Below are positions 2,926 through 57,068 of a stretch of DNA of 64,000 nucleotides, piece by piece. A program made the position numbers and the translations under genes. This DNA is from Candidatus Falkowbacteria bacterium RIFOXYD12_FULL_34_57 (GTDB lineage: Bacteria; Patescibacteriota; Patescibacteriia; Patescibacteriales; UBA12075), in contig MFGN01000001.1 in NCBI GenBank assembly GCA_001780285.1, positions 22 through 64,021 of the forward strand, written 5' to 3'. Numbering within the stretch: the first letter of the stretch is position 1; the number at the start of each line of letters is the position of its first letter. A model generated the notes under the pieces. It was not told the DNA's origin. It worked only from the letters and a program-made list of their open reading frames with translations, and did no database searches.

Positions 2926-4008
2926 TTACAATCCTAACTCCTCAATTAATTTCTTCTGCTTTCTGGTTATCCTACTTGGAATATTTACCCTTATCTCCAC
3001 CAAGTGATCTCCCCGCCCCCTACCCTGAAGGACATTTATTCCTTTATTTCTTAATTTAAATATGGTGCCAGACTGGGTTCCAGCCGGAATTTTTAAACTT
3101 ACCACTCCCTCAACTGTATCTATATCTATTTTATCACCCAATACTGCTTGTGTGAAGCTTATATTTTCCACGGAATGAATATCATAACCATCTCGCTCAA
3201 ATCGAGGATCGTCTTTTATATTCATTTTAATATATAAATCTCCTGCTGCCGCCCCCCTTTCTCCCGCCTCTCCTTGTCCTACCAGACGAATTGATTCCCC
3301 ATCATTAATTCCTGCCGGAATTTTTACTTGCAGTCTTACAGTATCCATATTAACACCCCTGCCGGAACACTGAGTACATTTCTTTTCATAAGACCTTCCT
3401 TCTCCGCCACATTGATCACAAGCAGACTGCACCTGCATATTACCAAGTATTGTTCTCTGAACTCGAGTTACCTTGCCGGTACCCCTGCAATTGCTACATG
3501 TAATAATTTTACTTCCCGGCTCGGCTAAATTTCCGTTGCAATGTGAACATTTTACTTTTTTATGCAAGCTTATTTCTTTTTCTGCTCCAAAAACAGCTTC
3601 TTTAAAATCAATAGTAAGAATTGTTTGAATATCATTACCGCGCCTTGCTCTTGGGCCATTTTCGCTTCTTGAACCGCCAAAACCGAACATATCTCCAATA
3701 CCGCCGAATATATCCCCCAAATCATCCATATCTACATGTATCCCGCCCTGAGAAAAACCGCCGAATCCCCCGCCGCTAAAACCGCCGGCCATGCCATTCG
3801 TAAAGTCGGAGCCAAACTGATCGTATTGCGCGCGTTTCTGTTCATTTCCTAAAACTTGATAAGCCTCATTAACCTCTTTAAATTTAGCTTCATCACCAGT
3901 AACTTTATCCGGATGATAAACATGCGCCTTCTTGCGGAAAGCTTTTTTTATTTCTTCCTGGCTGGCGTTCTTATTCACACCAAGAATATTGTAATAATCT
4001 TTAGACAT
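2926..4008 (-). CDS. dnaJ: molecular chaperone DnaJ (Hsp40, type I)
   Basis: J domain with HPD (YHPDK), a G/F-rich linker, four CxxCxGxG zinc-finger repeats and the C-terminal substrate-binding domains. Confidence 0.95.
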   Translation of the reverse strand: MSKDYYNILGVNKNASQEEIKKAFRKKAHVYHPDKVTGDEAKFKEVNEAYQVLGNEQKRAQYDQFGSDFTNGMAGGFSGGGFGGFSQGGIHVDMDDLGDIFGGIGDMFGFGGSRSENGPRARRGNDIQTILTIDFKEAVFGAEKEISLHKKVKCSHCNGNLAEPGSKIITCSNCRGTGKVTRVQRTILGNMQVQSACDQCGGEGRSYEKKCTQCSGRGVNMDTVRLQVKIPAGINDGESIRLVGQGEAGERGAAAGDLYIKMNIKDDPRFERDGYDIHSVENISFTQAVLGDKIDIDTVEGVVSLKIPAGTQSGTIFKLRNKGINVLQGRGRGDHLVEIRVNIPSRITRKQKKLIEELGL

Positions 4009-4129: not shown

Positions 4130-4435
4130 TTAATTTTTTGCATTAAACCCTATTTCTTTATTGGTTGGACCAACCGATTCTTTTACCTCCCCAAACTGAT
4201 CTTCGTATTTTTTTAAATTATCCTGCATAGCCGCAAGCATCCTCTTGAAATGACCGGGATTGGTTATAATTTTACCAGTTACTCGTCCGCTTCCACCCAT
4301 AATATTCAAAAACATCATGTGCATTTCATCTTTATTATGATTAATTTGCATCGCATTGGCATATTCCGCCCCAGGAATATTGTCTGCAATCTTAATTTCA
4401 ATTTTTTTTTCGCCTTGCGGCAGTTGATTATTCAT
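4130..4435 (-). CDS. DUF3467-family protein
   Basis: The segments IEIKIADNIPGAEYANAMQINHNKDEMHMMF, ITNPGHFKRMLAAMQDNLKKYEDQFGE match my recollection of DUF3467 (PF11950). Start moved to MNNQLPQ at 4435. Confidence 0.7.
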   Translation of the reverse strand: MNNQLPQGEKKIEIKIADNIPGAEYANAMQINHNKDEMHMMFLNIMGGSGRVTGKIITNPGHFKRMLAAMQDNLKKYEDQFGEVKESVGPTNKEIGFNAKN

Positions 4436-4531
4436 ATAATTATTTAAATTGTTATATTTTTTATAATAAAATGTACTTAACTGGTTGCTCAAAACATTTG
4501 AACAACCCATGAGAACACTTTAAACCCGAAT

Positions 4532-4618
4532 GTCATTCTGAACGAAGTGAAGAATCTCGTAAATAACGGTAGTCATAATTCAACGAGATTCTTCGTCGCT
4601 ATCGCTTCTCAGAATGAC
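4532..4618. repeat. GTCATTCTGA...TCAGAATGAC hairpin repeat, copy 3 (best preserved)
   Basis: The left arm gtcattctgaacgaagtgaagaatctcg pairs with the right arm cgagattcttcgtcgctatcgcttctcagaatgac. It lies between the dnaK stop and the DUF3467 gene. Confidence 0.85.
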
Positions 4619-4630
4619 ATTATGGTTGAT

Positions 4631-6556
4631 TTATTTTTTATCGTCCTTTTTTTCTTCAAACTCTGCATCAACGGTTCCATCTTTTTTTTCTTTTTTGGCT
4701 TCACTATTTGCAGCCTGATCTGCCCCAGGTTCTCCGGCTTGTGATCCCGCCTGTGCTTGCTGCTGATACATAGCCGTACCAATCTTCTGCGCGATCTCGT
4801 TCATAGCCTCCATCTTAGCCTTGATATCTTCGGTGTTGCCGGAATCTTTTATCTTCTTTAAATCTTCTAATTTTTCTTCCAACTCTTTTTTATCTTCTGT
4901 CTTCATTTTATCTCCCGATTCTTTTATTAATTTTTCTGTGGTAAAGATAACGGTATCGGCCTGATTTTTAATTTCTATTCCCTCTTTCTTCTTTTTATCT
5001 TCGTCAGCGTGCATTTCCGCATCTTTTTTCATTTTTTCCACCTCCGCCTCTGAAAGTCCGGAAGAAGCTGTAATTGTAATCTTTTGCTCTTTTCCCGATG
5101 CCATGTCCTTAGCGGAAACATTTAAAATACCGTTAGCATCAATATCAAACTTTACTTCAATTTGCGGAATACCTCTTGGTGCCGGTGGGAGTCCGTCAAG
5201 CATAAACCTTCCCAATGTTTTGTTATCCGCAGCCATAGATCTTTCACCTTGTAATACATGAATTTCTACTCCCGGCTGATTATCTGCTGCTGTAGAAAAT
5301 ATTTGGGTTTTAGAGGTTGGAATAGTGGTATTTCTTTCAATTAACGGAGTGGATACGCCGCCCAGTGTTTCTATTCCAAGCGTCAGCGGAGTTACATCAA
5401 GCAATAAAACATCCTTTACATCCCCCTGCAAGACACCCGCCTGGACCGCTGCTCCGTTCGCAACCACCTCATCAGGATTTACCCCTAAATGCGGTTCTTT
5501 ATTAAAAAATTCTTTTACTATTTTTTGAACCATGGGCATTCTGGTCATACCTCCAACTAAAATAACCTCTTCCAGATCACCAACAGAAAGCCCTGCATCT
5601 TTTAGGGCAGCACGACACGGAGTTAATGTTTTTTCAACCAAATAACCAACCAATTCCTCAAGTTTTGATCTGGTTAATTTTATCACTAAGTGTTTTGGTC
5701 CATTTTCATCAGTAGTTATAAAAGGTTGATTAATTTCTGTTTCTCCGGATGTGGATAGTTCAATTTTGGCTTTTTCGGCTGCTTCTTTTATTCTTTGCAA
5801 AGCCAGGGAGTCTTTAGACAAATCAATCCCTTGATCTTTCTTGAATTCATCAATAATCCATTTAATAATCACTTGATCAAAATCTTCACCGCCCAAATGA
5901 GTATCTCCATTTGTTGATTTTACCTCTACTGTATCTTCTGAAACATCTAAAATTGACACATCAAAAGTTCCGCCGCCAAGATCATAAACTGCAATTTGCT
6001 GGCCCTTCTTTTTTTCAAAACCATAAGCAAGCGCTGCAGCAGTCGGTTCATTGATAATTCTCTTTACATCAAGTCCGGCAATCTTACCGGCATCTTTGGT
6101 TGCCTGACGCTGAGCATCATTAAAATAAGCCGGAACGGTAATTACTGCTTCTGTTATTTTTTCTCCAATCTTTGCTTCAGCATCTGCTTTTAATTTAGAG
6201 AGTATCATAGCCGAAACCTCTTGCGGACTATACTCCTTATCATTCATTTTTACCCCCACACTATCACCGATCTTCACAATGTCAAAGGGAACTGTTTTTA
6301 TATCCCCCTGAACTTCCGCATCATCATATTTTCTCCCAATTAGACGCTTTACGGCAAAAACCGTATTCTTTGGATTGGTCACCGCCTGTCTTTTTGCGGC
6401 TTGACCAACTAATCTTTCACCACTTTTAGAAATGGCTACAACAGAAGGAGTTGTTCTGTTTCCCTCTGCATTTTCTAATATTTTTGGCTGACCACCCTCA
6501 ATAATCGCCATAGCGCAATTTGTGGTTCCCAAATCTATTCCTAATATTTTTCCCAT
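4631..6556 (-). CDS. dnaK: molecular chaperone DnaK (Hsp70)
   Basis: Full-length Hsp70 with [17 protein letters not shown] and [11 protein letters not shown] signatures and an acidic/Lys-rich tail. Confidence 0.98.
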
Positions 6557-6612: not shown

Positions 6613-7548
6613 TTAATTTGTTAATTGCATTGATTCTACTACCTCTATAAAATCATTTAATGGCAACATGCCGAAATCCGAATTTATAAAAGATAGGCCT
6701 CTGCATATTTCACTATTTAAATTTATTAATGCTCCTACATTTTCACCAATATCCACCATTAAATCCTCTTCATTCGTGCTTGTGACAAAGCTTTTTTTAT
6801 CCACCAACAGGGCTTTTCCTTTTTCAAAATTAATTATTTTGGCGGGATTCAATTTATAGTCTTTACTATCTTTCCCTTGTGCGAAAAAATAATAACCCTT
6901 GTCATCCTCTAAAAACCCCTGGGAATCTAAAAAAGATAATTTCTGCACATTTTCATTTTCCGGCAACTCCCTGCTAACACAGCCAAAAGAAAATTTATCG
7001 TTTTCCAAAAATTCACCGCGAACAATCTTGCCATCCCCCTTTTCGGTTATTTGCACATTAACCTTGCCAAAACGAGCCGGATACTCAAAAGATAATCCAA
7101 GCATCGAGTCCGTAAATTTGAGTTTAGCCGACTCTATCAATTCAGCTTTTTTCTTTAATTCTTCATTTTCGGTTAAAAGGCTGGATTTTTCAGTCTCAAT
7201 GCCGTCTATTTTATCTTTTAAATTAGAAATACGAGCCTCAAAATCTATTCTGGTTTGCCTGGCGCTATTTTGAATTTTTTCCACGCTTGTATTGGTATAT
7301 TTTTTCTGCCAAGCATAAATAACGCTTCCCACCACCACAGCCGTAATTACCACAACAATAAAAGTAAATAATGGGCTTGTTTGCCTCTCGGGCTTCCTAG
7401 TGGAGGTCTTTTTCTCTGCCGCGGGCGCGGGCGCGCTGCTTAAAGAAGTTTTTTTTCTTAAAACCTTCTTAACTTTTTTTAGAGGCGGATTCCCAGAAGA
7501 GATGCCGCCACCTTCATTGCTAACGCTTATTTTTAATTCATTTGCCAT
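6613..7548 (-). CDS. hypothetical membrane-anchored protein (basic N-terminus, 1 TM, coiled coil, globular C-domain)
   Basis: TM segment LFTFIVVVITAVVVGSVIYAW followed by a heptad-rich region. It lies between hsp20 and dnaK on the same strand. Confidence 0.6.
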   Translation of the reverse strand: MANELKISVSNEGGGISSGNPPLKKVKKVLRKKTSLSSAPAPAAEKKTSTRKPERQTSPLFTFIVVVITAVVVGSVIYAWQKKYTNTSVEKIQNSARQTRIDFEARISNLKDKIDGIETEKSSLLTENEELKKKAELIESAKLKFTDSMLGLSFEYPARFGKVNVQITEKGDGKIVRGEFLENDKFSFGCVSRELPENENVQKLSFLDSQGFLEDDKGYYFFAQGKDSKDYKLNPAKIINFEKGKALLVDKKSFVTSTNEEDLMVDIGENVGALINLNSEICRGLSFINSDFGMLPLNDFIEVVESMQLTN

Positions 7549-7693: not shown

Positions 7694-8125
7694 TTATTTT
7701 TTTTTAGTTTTAATCTTTATAGTTTTCGGTTTTGTCTCTATGGCTTTGGGGATGGATATTTTCAAAACCCCGTCTTCAGCTACAGCAGATGCTTTTTCCC
7801 CCACCACATGCGCCGGAAGCGGAATATTTCTATAAAAACTTCCACGCCTTATTTCTTTTTTATAATAATTTTTTTCTTCTACTTCGCTCTTTTTTTCACT
7901 TTCCCCCTTAATGCAAAGAACATCATTCTCAATAGAAATATCAACCTTATCCGGATCAATTCCGGCGAGCTGCGTTTCTACGATTACATTATCCTTATCT
8001 TCATACATATCAATAGCCGGCATAAAACCTAAGTTATTGCGCATGGTTGGCGCTAATTCGGAAAAAATTTTGTCCACATCTTCAAATGAATCAAAGAATG
8101 GGGACCACTTAATTAGTGATGTCAT
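7694..8125 (-). CDS. Hsp20/alpha-crystallin small heat-shock protein
   Basis: Alpha-crystallin domain pattern (PAIDMYEDKDNVIVETQLAGIDPDKVDISIENDVLCIKGE, AEDGVLKISIPK). An AAGGGGGA SD is present. Confidence 0.9.
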   Translation of the reverse strand: MTSLIKWSPFFDSFEDVDKIFSELAPTMRNNLGFMPAIDMYEDKDNVIVETQLAGIDPDKVDISIENDVLCIKGESEKKSEVEEKNYYKKEIRRGSFYRNIPLPAHVVGEKASAVAEDGVLKISIPKAIETKPKTIKIKTKKK

Positions 8126-8239: not shown

Positions 8240-9103
8240 CTAACCTACTACCACCCTAGCTGGAATTATTACCTTACCCCTTAATTTATAACCGGGCTTT
8301 ACTTCTTTTATAACCACTTCTTTTTTCTCTTCTTTTTCTTCAATTTTCTTGTCATGATTTTCTTCTTTCCTGTTATTATCTTCAACGGCTTCCATGGTGT
8401 GGATATCAAATTTTTCGCCCATAGTTTTAATTTCCTCCACCCCCTCTTTTTCCAAAATATCTTTGAATTGTTTTAAAACATATTTTACCCCCTCAAACCA
8501 AGGATCGGTTATATTATTATTGTTGTGTTCTACAGATATCTTTAAATTTTCATAAACCGGTAAAATTTCTAGCAAAATTTGTTCATTACTGTATTTTATA
8601 AACTCCATCCTTTCTTCCGTGCTCCGTTTTACTAAATTTTGATAATCAGCCAGAGCGCGCTTATATCTGTGTTCAAAACTTTCGTTGTCCAATAAATATT
8701 TTTCTATAATCTCTCTGGTGAATTCTCCCAAATCTTTTTGCAGCCATTCTTCAGGTTTTAACCATCTATACTTAACCCCCTCATCACTCAACTTTATTTT
8801 ATCTGTTTTTCTTGCCCTGGCCTTATAATTTAAAAATATTAAATGCTTTTGATCTTTTTTATATTTCTCACCTAATTTCAAGCCCTCTGAAACACCCATA
8901 AATTCAATATTCTCAATTTTCATGTTTGTTTCTTCTCTAATTTCTCTTTCCACAGCATCCTTAATTTTTTCACCATATTCAATTTTTCCCCCCGGTACTG
9001 TATACTTATTTTCCCAACAAGGAGCCTTCATTAAAAATAGTTCATCTTTATCATTAAAAATAAAAACACCAACTACGACTCTGGGATATTTTTTTTCACT
9101 CAT
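8240..9103 (-). CDS. grpE: NUDIX hydrolase domain fused to nucleotide exchange factor GrpE
   Basis: Residues 1-140 carry a Nudix box (GGKIEYGEKIKDAVEREIREETNM). Residues about 141-287 carry GrpE motifs (YKRALADYQNLVKR, LLEILPVYENL, GEKFDIHTMEAV, GYKLRGKVIIPARVVV). Confidence 0.85.
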   Translation of the reverse strand: MSEKKYPRVVVGVFIFNDKDELFLMKAPCWENKYTVPGGKIEYGEKIKDAVEREIREETNMKIENIEFMGVSEGLKLGEKYKKDQKHLIFLNYKARARKTDKIKLSDEGVKYRWLKPEEWLQKDLGEFTREIIEKYLLDNESFEHRYKRALADYQNLVKRSTEERMEFIKYSNEQILLEILPVYENLKISVEHNNNNITDPWFEGVKYVLKQFKDILEKEGVEEIKTMGEKFDIHTMEAVEDNNRKEENHDKKIEEKEEKKEVVIKEVKPGYKLRGKVIIPARVVVG

Positions 9104-9123: not shown

Positions 9124-9807
9124 TTAATTAGATATTTTTTTATTAATATATTTAATTAATGCGATATTTTTTTTATAATCCATTCTCATGGGACCCAAAA
9201 CACCAAACAGTCCAACATTATCTTCTGTTCTGTGTTTAGAAATAATCACGCTGCAAAAATTACCAAAAGGATTTTTGGAACCGATTAGGGTGTGAACACC
9301 TATATCAATCTCATCAAAAATACTATCAATCACTTCGTCCATGCGATCAATAACGGTGGATATGTCATGAATTAAGCTAAGCTCATTGAATTCTGGCTGT
9401 TGAAATAAGTTTGAAATTCCTGTATAGTATAAATTATTCCTATGAAATGCGCAAAATACGGCGCCGTCCGAAATTCTAGCTGTAACTTTTGCCGTTTCCT
9501 TGAGGCTTTGTTCGTCGGTATTTTGAAGTACGGAGCAAAAATGATCAGTAATCTGCTTGCTTAGCTTGGAATTTGAAAATTGTTCTAAGAACAAATTATA
9601 CGCTTTTTCGGTTGGAACCCTTCCGGCAGAAGTGTGTGGCTGTATAATATATCCCTCGGACTCCAGCCAGGCTAATTCGTTTCTAGCTGTCGCCGGCGAT
9701 ATATCCAGATTATATTTTTCAACCAAAACACCCGACCCCACCGGCGTGCCCGTCTTGATATGCTCTTGTATTAAAATTTTTAAAATCAATTCCTTTCTTG
9801 AATCCAT
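9124..9807 (-). CDS. hrcA: heat-inducible transcription repressor HrcA (short form, 227 aa)
   Basis: N-terminal wHTH with GTPVGSGVL, LDISPATARNELAWLESEGYIIQPHTSAGRVPTEKAY. The C-terminal region is about 110 aa shorter than in typical HrcA proteins. Confidence 0.85.
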   Translation of the reverse strand: MDSRKELILKILIQEHIKTGTPVGSGVLVEKYNLDISPATARNELAWLESEGYIIQPHTSAGRVPTEKAYNLFLEQFSNSKLSKQITDHFCSVLQNTDEQSLKETAKVTARISDGAVFCAFHRNNLYYTGISNLFQQPEFNELSLIHDISTVIDRMDEVIDSIFDEIDIGVHTLIGSKNPFGNFCSVIISKHRTEDNVGLFGVLGPMRMDYKKNIALIKYINKKISN

Positions 9808-9829: not shown

Positions 9830-9859
9830 ATTATATATCTTTTGGCACTCAGGTGTCAA
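9830..9859 (-). promoter_or_regulatory. hrcA promoter TTGACA-N18-TATAAT
   Basis: The sense-strand TTGACA (plus 9854-9859) lies inside the CIRCE spacer. TATAAT is at plus 9830-9835. Confidence 0.65.
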
Positions 9860-9868
9860 GAGTGCTAA
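9842..9868. promoter_or_regulatory. CIRCE operator (TTGGCACTC-N9-GAGTGCTAA)
   Basis: One mismatch to the CIRCE consensus TTAGCACTC-N9-GAGTGCTAA. It lies between divergent hrcA and the 9908 ORF. Confidence 0.9.
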
Positions 9869-26745: not shown

Positions 26746-27210
26746 TCATTTTCCTTCTTCAAAATAAATTGCAGTATCTCTCTTTAGTGCGTCTAGGCAT
26801 TTCTGTAATCTTATACTTAATTTCTCACTTAATAGTGGTAACGCTTCGGAAATTTTCATAAATCTATATTCGATAATTTCTTTTCCGTCCAATCTAATCT
26901 TCTTAACCTCTCCTTCATTTAATCTTCCGCCAAAGAAAATGAATTGTAAACTTTCTCCTTTTTCGTCAATATTTGATGTGTACCCAACACATAAAAATCT
27001 TACCTCTTCTAAATTTATTCCAATTTCCTCTTTTACTTCTCTGATACACGCACCCCCGGGAGATTCATTTTTATCAACAACCCCGCCAACTATTGACCAG
27101 TGATTCTTATAACTAGGTTTTACAATAAGAATTTCATCATTTTCGTTCAAAATCAAGGCTCCGACACCCATTCGCTTTTTTGGTAAATTTTTATAATATT
27201 CACTGCTCAT
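26746..27210 (-). CDS. NUDIX hydrolase
   Basis: Nudix box GGVVDKNESPGGACIREVKEEIGI. Confidence 0.85.
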   Translation of the reverse strand: MSSEYYKNLPKKRMGVGALILNENDEILIVKPSYKNHWSIVGGVVDKNESPGGACIREVKEEIGINLEEVRFLCVGYTSNIDEKGESLQFIFFGGRLNEGEVKKIRLDGKEIIEYRFMKISEALPLLSEKLSIRLQKCLDALKRDTAIYFEEGK

Positions 27211-56513: not shown

Positions 56514-57068
56514 TTAAAGTAATCCCTTATATTCCAATATCTTTAGTGTTCCTAATATTTTGATATCAACCGTAAAATCATCATGCTTTTTTACACAAAA
56601 ATCCACCAAATCTTTCAAGGGTATTTTAATTACTTCAATATCCTCCGCATCATCGCTTTCTACCCCTTCAAAACCGACATATTCCGCATCAGGAGCATAA
56701 TAAATATCCATAACACAATCAGACATGCCGGCATTAAACGGTCCGCCATGCACATAAATAAATTTATCCGCGCTATATCCGGTTTCTTCCTGTAATTCTC
56801 TTTTTGCGGTATCTGTAAAATTTTCCCCGTCTTTATCCACTAGGCCGGCGGGGGTTTCTACCACGCATCCCTCATGAGGAATCCTGTATTGTTTAGTTAA
56901 AACAACTTCTTTTTCTTTTTTGGTTACAGCAAAAACAGCCACTATCCCGCGGACATTGCTGCGCTCCACGCATTCCCATAAACAATCTTTGCCGGTTTTG
57001 GTTTGAAATTCCTTGCCGATTACGCGAAGAAACTTGCCGTTATATAAATTTGTCTTTTTAAAATTCAT
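56514..57068 (-). CDS. NUDIX hydrolase (ADP-ribose/nucleotide-sugar pyrophosphatase-like)
   Basis: Nudix box AGLVDKDGENFTDTAKRELQEETGY. Confidence 0.85.
   Translation of the reverse strand: MNFKKTNLYNGKFLRVIGKEFQTKTGKDCLWECVERSNVRGIVAVFAVTKKEKEVVLTKQYRIPHEGCVVETPAGLVDKDGENFTDTAKRELQEETGYSADKFIYVHGGPFNAGMSDCVMDIYYAPDAEYVGFEGVESDDAEDIEVIKIPLKDLVDFCVKKHDDFTVDIKILGTLKILEYKGLL

Follow-up and report, generated by a model that had tools for sequence, protein, structure and literature searches.

A Nudix domain fused to the heat-shock co-chaperone GrpE of a Falkowbacteria bacterium occupies an exchangeable N-terminal slot

The stretch of DNA analysed here (64,000 nucleotides of contig MFGN01000001.1 from Candidatus Falkowbacteria bacterium RIFOXYD12_FULL_34_57, an ultra-small bacterium of groundwater; hereafter the window) carries on its minus strand a heat-shock gene cluster in the order hrcA, nudix-grpE, hsp20, an open reading frame (ORF) of 311 amino acids (aa), dnaK, a 126-aa ORF, dnaJ, another 126-aa ORF and a gene for an HtrA-like protease. 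The second of these genes, which is the subject of this study, is a complete, ATG-started ORF of 287 aa plus stop codon (8240..9103) and encodes a Nudix domain (residues 7-135; 8699..9085), a linker (residues 136-142; 8678..8698) and a GrpE core (residues 143-287 and the stop codon; 8240..8677), all on the minus strand. An original prediction, made from the sequence alone, had described a single ORF at this position with a Nudix domain N-terminal to GrpE, leaving its strand unstated, and this description was upheld by Pfam searches and by identity to a database protein. PF00293 matched residues 7-135 with 73.5 bits (cut-off 21.1; profile positions 2-133 of 134) and PF01025 matched residues 129-286 with 106 bits (cut-off 25.8; profile positions 16-163 of 165), both far above cut-off, and the domain junction falls at residue 141 (nucleotide 8683), where that prediction had placed it.

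The Nudix half, as delimited by Pfam, an AF2 model and Foldseek, is a small MutT/NudI-like domain which retains every catalytic residue. The box first quoted for it was found intact at residues 38-61; the motif itself, GKIEYGEKIKDAVEREIREETNM, occupies residues 39-61 (8921..8989, minus strand) and contains G39, E45, R53, E54, E57 and E58, each of them at least 90% conserved in an alignment of homologues. Its pattern (G39-x5-E45-x7-R53-E54-I-R-E57-E58-T-N60-M61) departs from the consensus GX5EX7REUXEEXGU solely in having N60 for the last Gly, a position at which Asn is the norm in the family. In the AF2 model the domain is an alpha/beta/alpha sandwich (pLDDT 92-97), and Foldseek matched it with a probability of 1.00 to more than 50 Nudix structures, the closest being the Rickettsia “MutT” 4KYX (TM 0.78) and NudI/YfaO 3OGA (TM 0.83), with NUDT15, GDP-mannose mannosyl hydrolase and Ap4A and Ap6A hydrolases among the other neighbours (TM 0.7-0.83 overall). 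The domain is thus like the small MutT/NudI-type hydrolases (3OGA, 4KYX, NUDT15 and A. thaliana NUDX1) in size and fold (target-normalised TM 0.75-0.83) and in having a complete Nudix box, but it differs from NudI and MutT in falling short of their curated scores, in the Asn that replaces the last Gly of the box and in being covalently joined to a co-chaperone. Assignment of a substrate by homology was attempted with the NCBIfam equivalogs, a PDB sequence search and Foldseek, and was given up as these returned only generic MutT/NudI/NUDX1-type neighbours. Scores against the characterised subfamilies were, in bits, 44 for NudI (cut-off 95), 43 for NudC (158), 37 for MutT (98-148), 27 for RppH (116-259) and 21 for NudE (169), with NudB likewise far below; a search of a word-indexed protein database with the Nudix domain alone gave 21 candidates and 4 matches.

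A full GrpE core, comprising a short stalk helix, the helices of the four-helix bundle and the C-terminal beta-domain, makes up the C-terminal 145 residues, as seen from the Pfam match, from a match to the Geobacillus kaustophilus GrpE structure 4ANI (E=1.3e-14) and from alignment with E. coli GrpE. The claim that GrpE motifs run through to the end of the beta-domain holds, the C-terminal motif GYKLRGKVIIPARVVV (residues 271-286) aligning with the ends of both 4ANI and E. coli GrpE. G205, which is invariant in 58 sequences, aligns to E. coli G122, which we take to be the residue altered in the classical grpE280 mutant. AF2 modelled the whole protein with a mean pLDDT of 84, predicting a helix of 50 residues (143-192), a further helix (201-219) and beta strands (222-286), with the linker joining the last Nudix helix (127-137) to the stalk helix. 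A Lys/Glu-rich low-complexity insertion lies within the beta-domain (residues 240-263; 8315..8386, minus strand); it is predicted to be disordered (pLDDT ~47) and is 24 residues long here compared with 7 or 14 in most homologues. All of the NCBIfam GrpE equivalogs missed their cut-offs (the best, NF010750, scored 80.3 bits against 194), as is expected for a divergent protein of the candidate phyla radiation (CPR) because these models are lineage-specific. From its family membership, we infer that the core dimerises and serves the DnaK encoded downstream as its ADP/ATP exchange factor.

The stalk of this GrpE had been proposed to be shortened, and it does have ~18 helix residues fewer than that of E. 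coli. Since R149 is the counterpart of E. coli R64 in the alignment and the stalk helix is predicted to begin at residue 143, residues 1 to ~57 of E. coli GrpE, that is its disordered tail and ~18 residues of its stalk helix, have no counterpart. The E. coli tail is a disordered N-terminal segment of ~33 residues, whose 17-IIM-19 motif binds the substrate site of the DnaK substrate-binding domain (SBD; PMC12915176). According to the AF2 model and the E. coli alignment the fusion protein has no disordered, DnaK-SBD-binding N-terminal tail, residues 1-135 being folded Nudix domain (pLDDT >90), attached through ~7 linker residues to the tip of the short stalk helix, the place where canonical GrpE has this tail. 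The protein therefore shares with canonical GrpE (E. coli P09372; 4ANI) the helical bundle, the beta-domain, the counterpart of G122, the PF01025 match and an operon with hrcA, dnaK and dnaJ, but lacks the IIM tail (PMC12915176) and part of the stalk and has instead a folded enzyme domain of 135 residues.

Nudix-GrpE is a genuine fusion, one polypeptide with two intact domains, and by sequence and fold it belongs to both the GrpE and the Nudix family. It is identical to NCBI OGF28019.1, annotated “nucleotide exchange factor GrpE”, of Candidatus Falkowbacteria bacterium RIFOXYB2_FULL_34_18, and a protein database search found the exact protein on 6 contigs (OGF28019.1 and others). A survey of homologues from NCBI, JGI, ENA and Logan assemblies showed the architecture to be conserved, PF00293 and PF01025 both being present in the best 120 of 888 homologues (identities from 97% to ~46%). 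When 1.84 billion cluster representatives (50% identity) were searched exhaustively, 53 of them matched at E<=1e-30; fusions of the Nudix-GrpE type accounted for 59 of the top 148 such representatives, and the architecture extends across hundreds of protein clusters with identities from 97% down to ~30%. Within 117 close homologues the mean identity was 47% for the Nudix half and 61% for the GrpE half, and the spacing across the junction, from W120 to A150, was 28-34 residues in 112 of them. The alternative, that two neighbouring genes have been merged through a frameshift, the loss of a stop codon or a chimeric assembly, was rejected on the breadth of these independent homologues and can be considered practically nil; it found no support, though grpE is indeed directly preceded by a separate Nudix gene in two lineages, and it is contradicted by the recurrence of the same architecture in hundreds of clusters from all four sources, by the conserved junction spacing and by the occurrence of the exact protein on several contigs.

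The cluster is under the control of CIRCE and HrcA, with nudix-grpE as its only grpE; no second grpE was found within the window. Upstream of hrcA lies a CIRCE operator, the binding site of HrcA (TTGGCACTC-N9-GAGTGCTAA; 9842..9868), with one mismatch to the consensus and with no match in 100 shuffles, and it is overlapped by a perfect sigma-70-type promoter motif, TTGACA-18-TATAAT (9830..9859, minus strand). The hrcA gene (9124..9807, minus strand; identified as an ORF with a profile match) ends 20 nt upstream of nudix-grpE and is a short form, encoding 227 aa against the 338 positions of the TIGR00331 model, to which two separate segments of it match; with 227-247 aa in relatives it looks like a compact variant typical of the clade. 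Downstream of nudix-grpE lie hsp20, coding for a small heat-shock protein (7694..8125, minus strand; ORF and profile), and dnaK, coding for the presumed partner of the GrpE core (4631..6556, minus strand). The order hrcA-grpE-hsp20-dnaK was found in most of 80 species-level loci taken from GTDB genomes of Falkowbacteria, Magasanikbacteria, Parcubacteria and unclassified Patescibacteria, a few being cut by a contig end or without hsp20. A 389-aa database protein that is 97% identical to the query (P0002) is listed with HSP20, GrpE and NUDIX domains, and is probably a gene-calling merge or the product of a truncated contig and not a genuine triple fusion.

Comparison of the window with these 80 loci showed that the N-terminus of GrpE in this bacterial class (ABY1 Patescibacteria) is an exchangeable accessory slot which is swapped on short time scales. 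GrpE with nothing but a Lys/Glu-rich tail (20-55 residues) was encoded at 32 loci, Nudix-GrpE at 24, GrpE with an N-terminal DUF1653 domain (PF07866) at 15, DUF1653-Nudix-GrpE at 5, and GrpE with a degenerate Nudix box at 5 (one of which also has DUF1653), proportions that are biased to fusions as the loci were ranked by similarity to the query. DUF1653-GrpE is exemplified by L032, L045 (grpE at 4400-5035, PF07866 92.6 bits), L048 and L057, and the DUF1653-Nudix-GrpE triple fusions come from five species (L018-L022). We know of no function for DUF1653, a literature search on it found nothing relevant, and its only relative in the PDB, 3BE3, is an “uncharacterized protein”. Further variants in the same operon are Nudix-Nudix-GrpE proteins of ~450 aa and an additional, intact Nudix gene that separates hrcA from nudix-grpE, which was seen in L015 (1071-1508, with nudix-grpE at 1532-2371) and L081 (5001-5441, with nudix-grpE at 5446-6309); the closest free-standing homologue of the Nudix domain studied here, P0172, is itself the product of a gene between hrcA and nudix-grpE.

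That the module is exchanged was concluded from close pairs of loci and not from a neighbour-joining tree of GrpE cores, which was unbootstrapped and poorly resolved and in which fused and unfused forms were interleaved. L011, with Nudix, and L032, with DUF1653, have DnaK proteins that are 94% identical and GrpE cores that are 88% identical, while the core of L028, which has a tail only, is 98% identical to that of L032. At the DNA level the homology of these three loci runs through hrcA, is interrupted, and comes back precisely where the core begins; the intervening module DNA (~600, 220 and 75 nt) is unrelated. The core begins at the same motif, E-x-KYKRALADYQNL, in every relative whether it has a Nudix domain or not, and the short stalk is thus a feature of the clade and not a result of the Nudix fusion. 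The suggestion in the original prediction that the Nudix fold replaces the thermosensor helix was accordingly rejected, as relatives without Nudix share an equally short stalk. When DnaK sequences were compared with regard to the presence of Nudix on GrpE (25 against 32 sequences), no signal of co-variation with Nudix presence was found (the largest frequency difference was 0.35, and the substitutions were conservative).

At least three sequence types can be distinguished among the fused Nudix domains, that of the window being type A. Types A and B are 33% identical to one another and share 36% identity each with free-standing Nudix proteins, and monophyly of all fused Nudix domains received 0.5% support in a neighbour-joining bootstrap analysis (40-82% for sub-clades), so that several independent recruitments of Nudix to GrpE are suggested, though not proven. 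Free-standing homologues (P0123, P0177, P0186 and P0190) lie in unrelated, partly archaeal, neighbourhoods that offered no functional hint. The check on the catalytic Glu and Arg residues showed them to be intact in the protein studied here, in 112 of the 117 close homologues and in 45 of the 62 fused domains among the 50%-identity cluster representatives (approximately three quarters). In L015 and in P0054 (451 aa) the box nearer to GrpE is dead (RKIKDE and RKMKDE respectively) and an intact Nudix domain is encoded or fused directly upstream; a fragment of the GrpE stalk helix is retained between the two Nudix domains of P0054, which suggests that they arose by tandem duplication. Most lineages, this one included, retain hydrolytic capacity within the gene or next to it, and an enzymatic or nucleotide-sensing role for the Nudix domain is plausible because its catalytic Glu and Arg residues are intact and the fusion is conserved.

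The reading that we tentatively favour is that Nudix-GrpE is a standard exchange factor carrying an optional module, co-expressed upon heat shock, which binds and hydrolyses a nucleotide metabolite as an add-on to exchange. The GrpE core would function as usual, with the Nudix domain standing outside the exchange mechanism, and the GrpE dimer would hold two Nudix copies side by side. The module may bind, and in this protein may also hydrolyse, a metabolite of the nucleoside-diphosphate-X or NTP type that is relevant to heat stress, and fusion would place this activity under the control of HrcA at 1:1 stoichiometry with GrpE. Ap4A-type dinucleotides would be the leading substrate candidate because Ap4A rises upon heat shock and cross-links to DnaK; E. 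coli builds up such dinucleotides when heat-shocked, and they become cross-linked to DnaK, GroEL and ClpB (PMC10148737). A weaker case can be made for ADP-ribose, as a Nudix protein of the NudE/ADP-sugar-pyrophosphatase type (184 aa; 56514-57068, minus strand) is already encoded in the window; this protein, like the 154-aa MutT/RppH-like Nudix protein encoded just downstream of secA (26746-27210, minus strand), scores below the curated subfamily cut-offs. Evidence counted for selection on Nudix specifically was the position of P0172 in the operon, the Nudix-Nudix-GrpE forms, the intact copies beside dead boxes and the existence of three or more Nudix types.

Several observations weigh against this reading. 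None of the models of characterised Nudix subfamilies reaches its cut-off, so that no substrate can be assigned, close relatives without any Nudix on GrpE exist, and housekeeping Nudix functions may be covered by the other Nudix genes because the window has two of these. Moreover, ~15-25% of the fused Nudix domains lack the catalytic residues and have been retained nevertheless; clearly degenerate domains were found in ~9 representatives and at 5 species-level loci, some of them still matching Pfam NUDIX. The degenerate domain of L042, L047 and L077 has pN of 0.13-0.20 against pS of 0.69-0.80 (non-synonymous and synonymous differences respectively), indicating purifying selection, and is therefore functional without catalytic residues. 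As degenerate domains are retained, and in one lineage are under purifying selection, the Nudix fold has a value that is independent of hydrolysis.

These degenerate domains favour the main rival, in which the Nudix domain is a ligand sensor: an effector domain like that of NrtR, whose occupancy by a nucleotide would alter the N-terminal dimer and the stalk and so tune exchange or substrate release, hydrolysis merely ending the signal. There is precedent in NrtR for a Nudix-like effector domain joined to an output domain (PMC2330246), and the module is positioned at the site of the canonical tail, which modulates the DnaK SBD (PMC12915176). However, the full catalytic set persists in three quarters of lineages, this one included, co-variation with Nudix was seen at no DnaK position, and the module can be replaced by an unrelated DUF1653 or a bare tail in near-identical backgrounds, and on balance we regard sensing as somewhat unlikely. 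The same replaceability by DUF1653 or a Lys/Glu-rich tail, together with the persistence of degenerate versions and the short linker of constrained length, is what would be expected of a weaker rival, a purely structural module which caps or clamps the short coiled-coil stalk as a dimer stabiliser or alternative thermosensor and for which nucleotide chemistry is irrelevant; but the metal-binding and catalytic residues are strongly conserved in most lineages, operons in which the fused Nudix is dead retain a second, intact copy, and relatives with a tail only have an equally short stalk and hence need no cap, making this explanation quite unlikely.

The original prediction had proposed that the fusion may link exchange on DnaK with the hydrolysis or sensing of a nucleotide, such as ADP-ribose, Ap4A or a ppGpp-like alarmone. 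In its most direct form the Nudix domain would hydrolyse the ADP or other adenine nucleotide expelled from DnaK and so make exchange irreversible at low ATP/ADP, which is in keeping with both activities handling the same class of molecule and with the nearest structural neighbours being NTP/NDP-type hydrolases (NudI, MutT and NUDT15). In the GrpE-DnaK structures 1DKG and 4ANI the beta-domain opens the nucleotide cleft of DnaK and the tip of the stalk lies at the far end. A module attached at this tip, opposite the beta-domain, is therefore unlikely to hydrolyse DnaK-released ADP directly, and tight coupling to ADP/ATP exchange, with channelling of ADP as it leaves DnaK, is likewise unlikely. 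The module is moreover dispensable in close relatives, being swapped for DUF1653 or a tail beside a DnaK that is 94% identical, and DnaK does not co-vary with it; the claim of tight coupling found no support, and we consider direct hydrolysis of the expelled nucleotide to be highly improbable. In a further, more novel reading, small nucleotide-handling modules (Nudix, DUF1653 or both) would plug into the GrpE N-terminus as into a socket, and through them the DnaK cycle would respond to, or clear, a stress nucleotide such as Ap4A. We think this reading unlikely; if true, Nudix-GrpE would be the first Hsp70 exchange factor to have a small-molecule sensor or enzyme built into it, and there would be a direct physical link from alarmone metabolism to the chaperone cycle.

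Nudix-GrpE is common in its group and apparently unstudied. Our literature searches found no paper describing or studying the fusion, and a 2025 review of GrpE-like factors mentions no fusions (PMC12987570), while databases annotate both domains automatically, for example as “molecular chaperone GrpE/8-oxo-dGTP pyrophosphatase MutT” in JGI. The nearest described bacterial GrpE with an extra functional domain is All4144 of Anabaena (bioRxiv 10.1101/2025.04.14.648684), but its additional domain is a helix-turn-helix, which is DNA-binding and not enzymatic, and it belongs to a different lineage. NrtR likewise joins an N-terminal Nudix-like domain to an unrelated output domain and, as in Nudix-GrpE, has members with and without catalytic residues (PMC2330246), but its output domain is a DNA-binding winged helix and not a chaperone cofactor, and its Nudix domain is of the ADP-ribose pyrophosphatase type. 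The BAG-family Hsp70 exchange factors of eukaryotes, which also combine an exchange module with variable accessory domains linking Hsp70 elsewhere, are an analogy only, as their fold and ancestry are unrelated to GrpE (the classes of nucleotide exchange factor are reviewed in PMC12987570).

What is new here is the GrpE N-terminus as an exchangeable cassette in this group of Patescibacteria. GrpE is usually regarded as a single-purpose exchange factor of fixed architecture, and these results suggest that a widespread natural GrpE has a nucleotide hydrolase, catalytically competent as judged from its residues, in place of the pseudo-substrate tail, in a clade which swaps this module rapidly. This provides a ready-made system for asking what the GrpE N-terminus does and whether stress nucleotides, such as the DnaK-binding Ap4A, connect functionally to the Hsp70 cycle, and it makes an uncharacterised clade of Nudix domains, as well as DUF1653, candidates for heat-shock-related roles.

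Of the remaining genes of the cluster, all on the minus strand, those beyond dnaK were read from their translations. The dnaJ gene (2926..4008) encodes a visible J domain, a Gly/Phe-rich region and CxxCxGxG zinc fingers, and is flanked by the two 126-aa ORFs (4130-4510 and 2519-2899), the second of which is followed by the gene for the HtrA-like serine protease, which has a PDZ-type C-terminus (1335-2504). The 311-aa ORF between hsp20 and dnaK (6613-7548) matched no Pfam family; its product combines a coiled coil with a transmembrane segment at the N-terminus, and the ORF is kept at the same position in L006, L009, L010, L030, L036, L054, L064 and L070.

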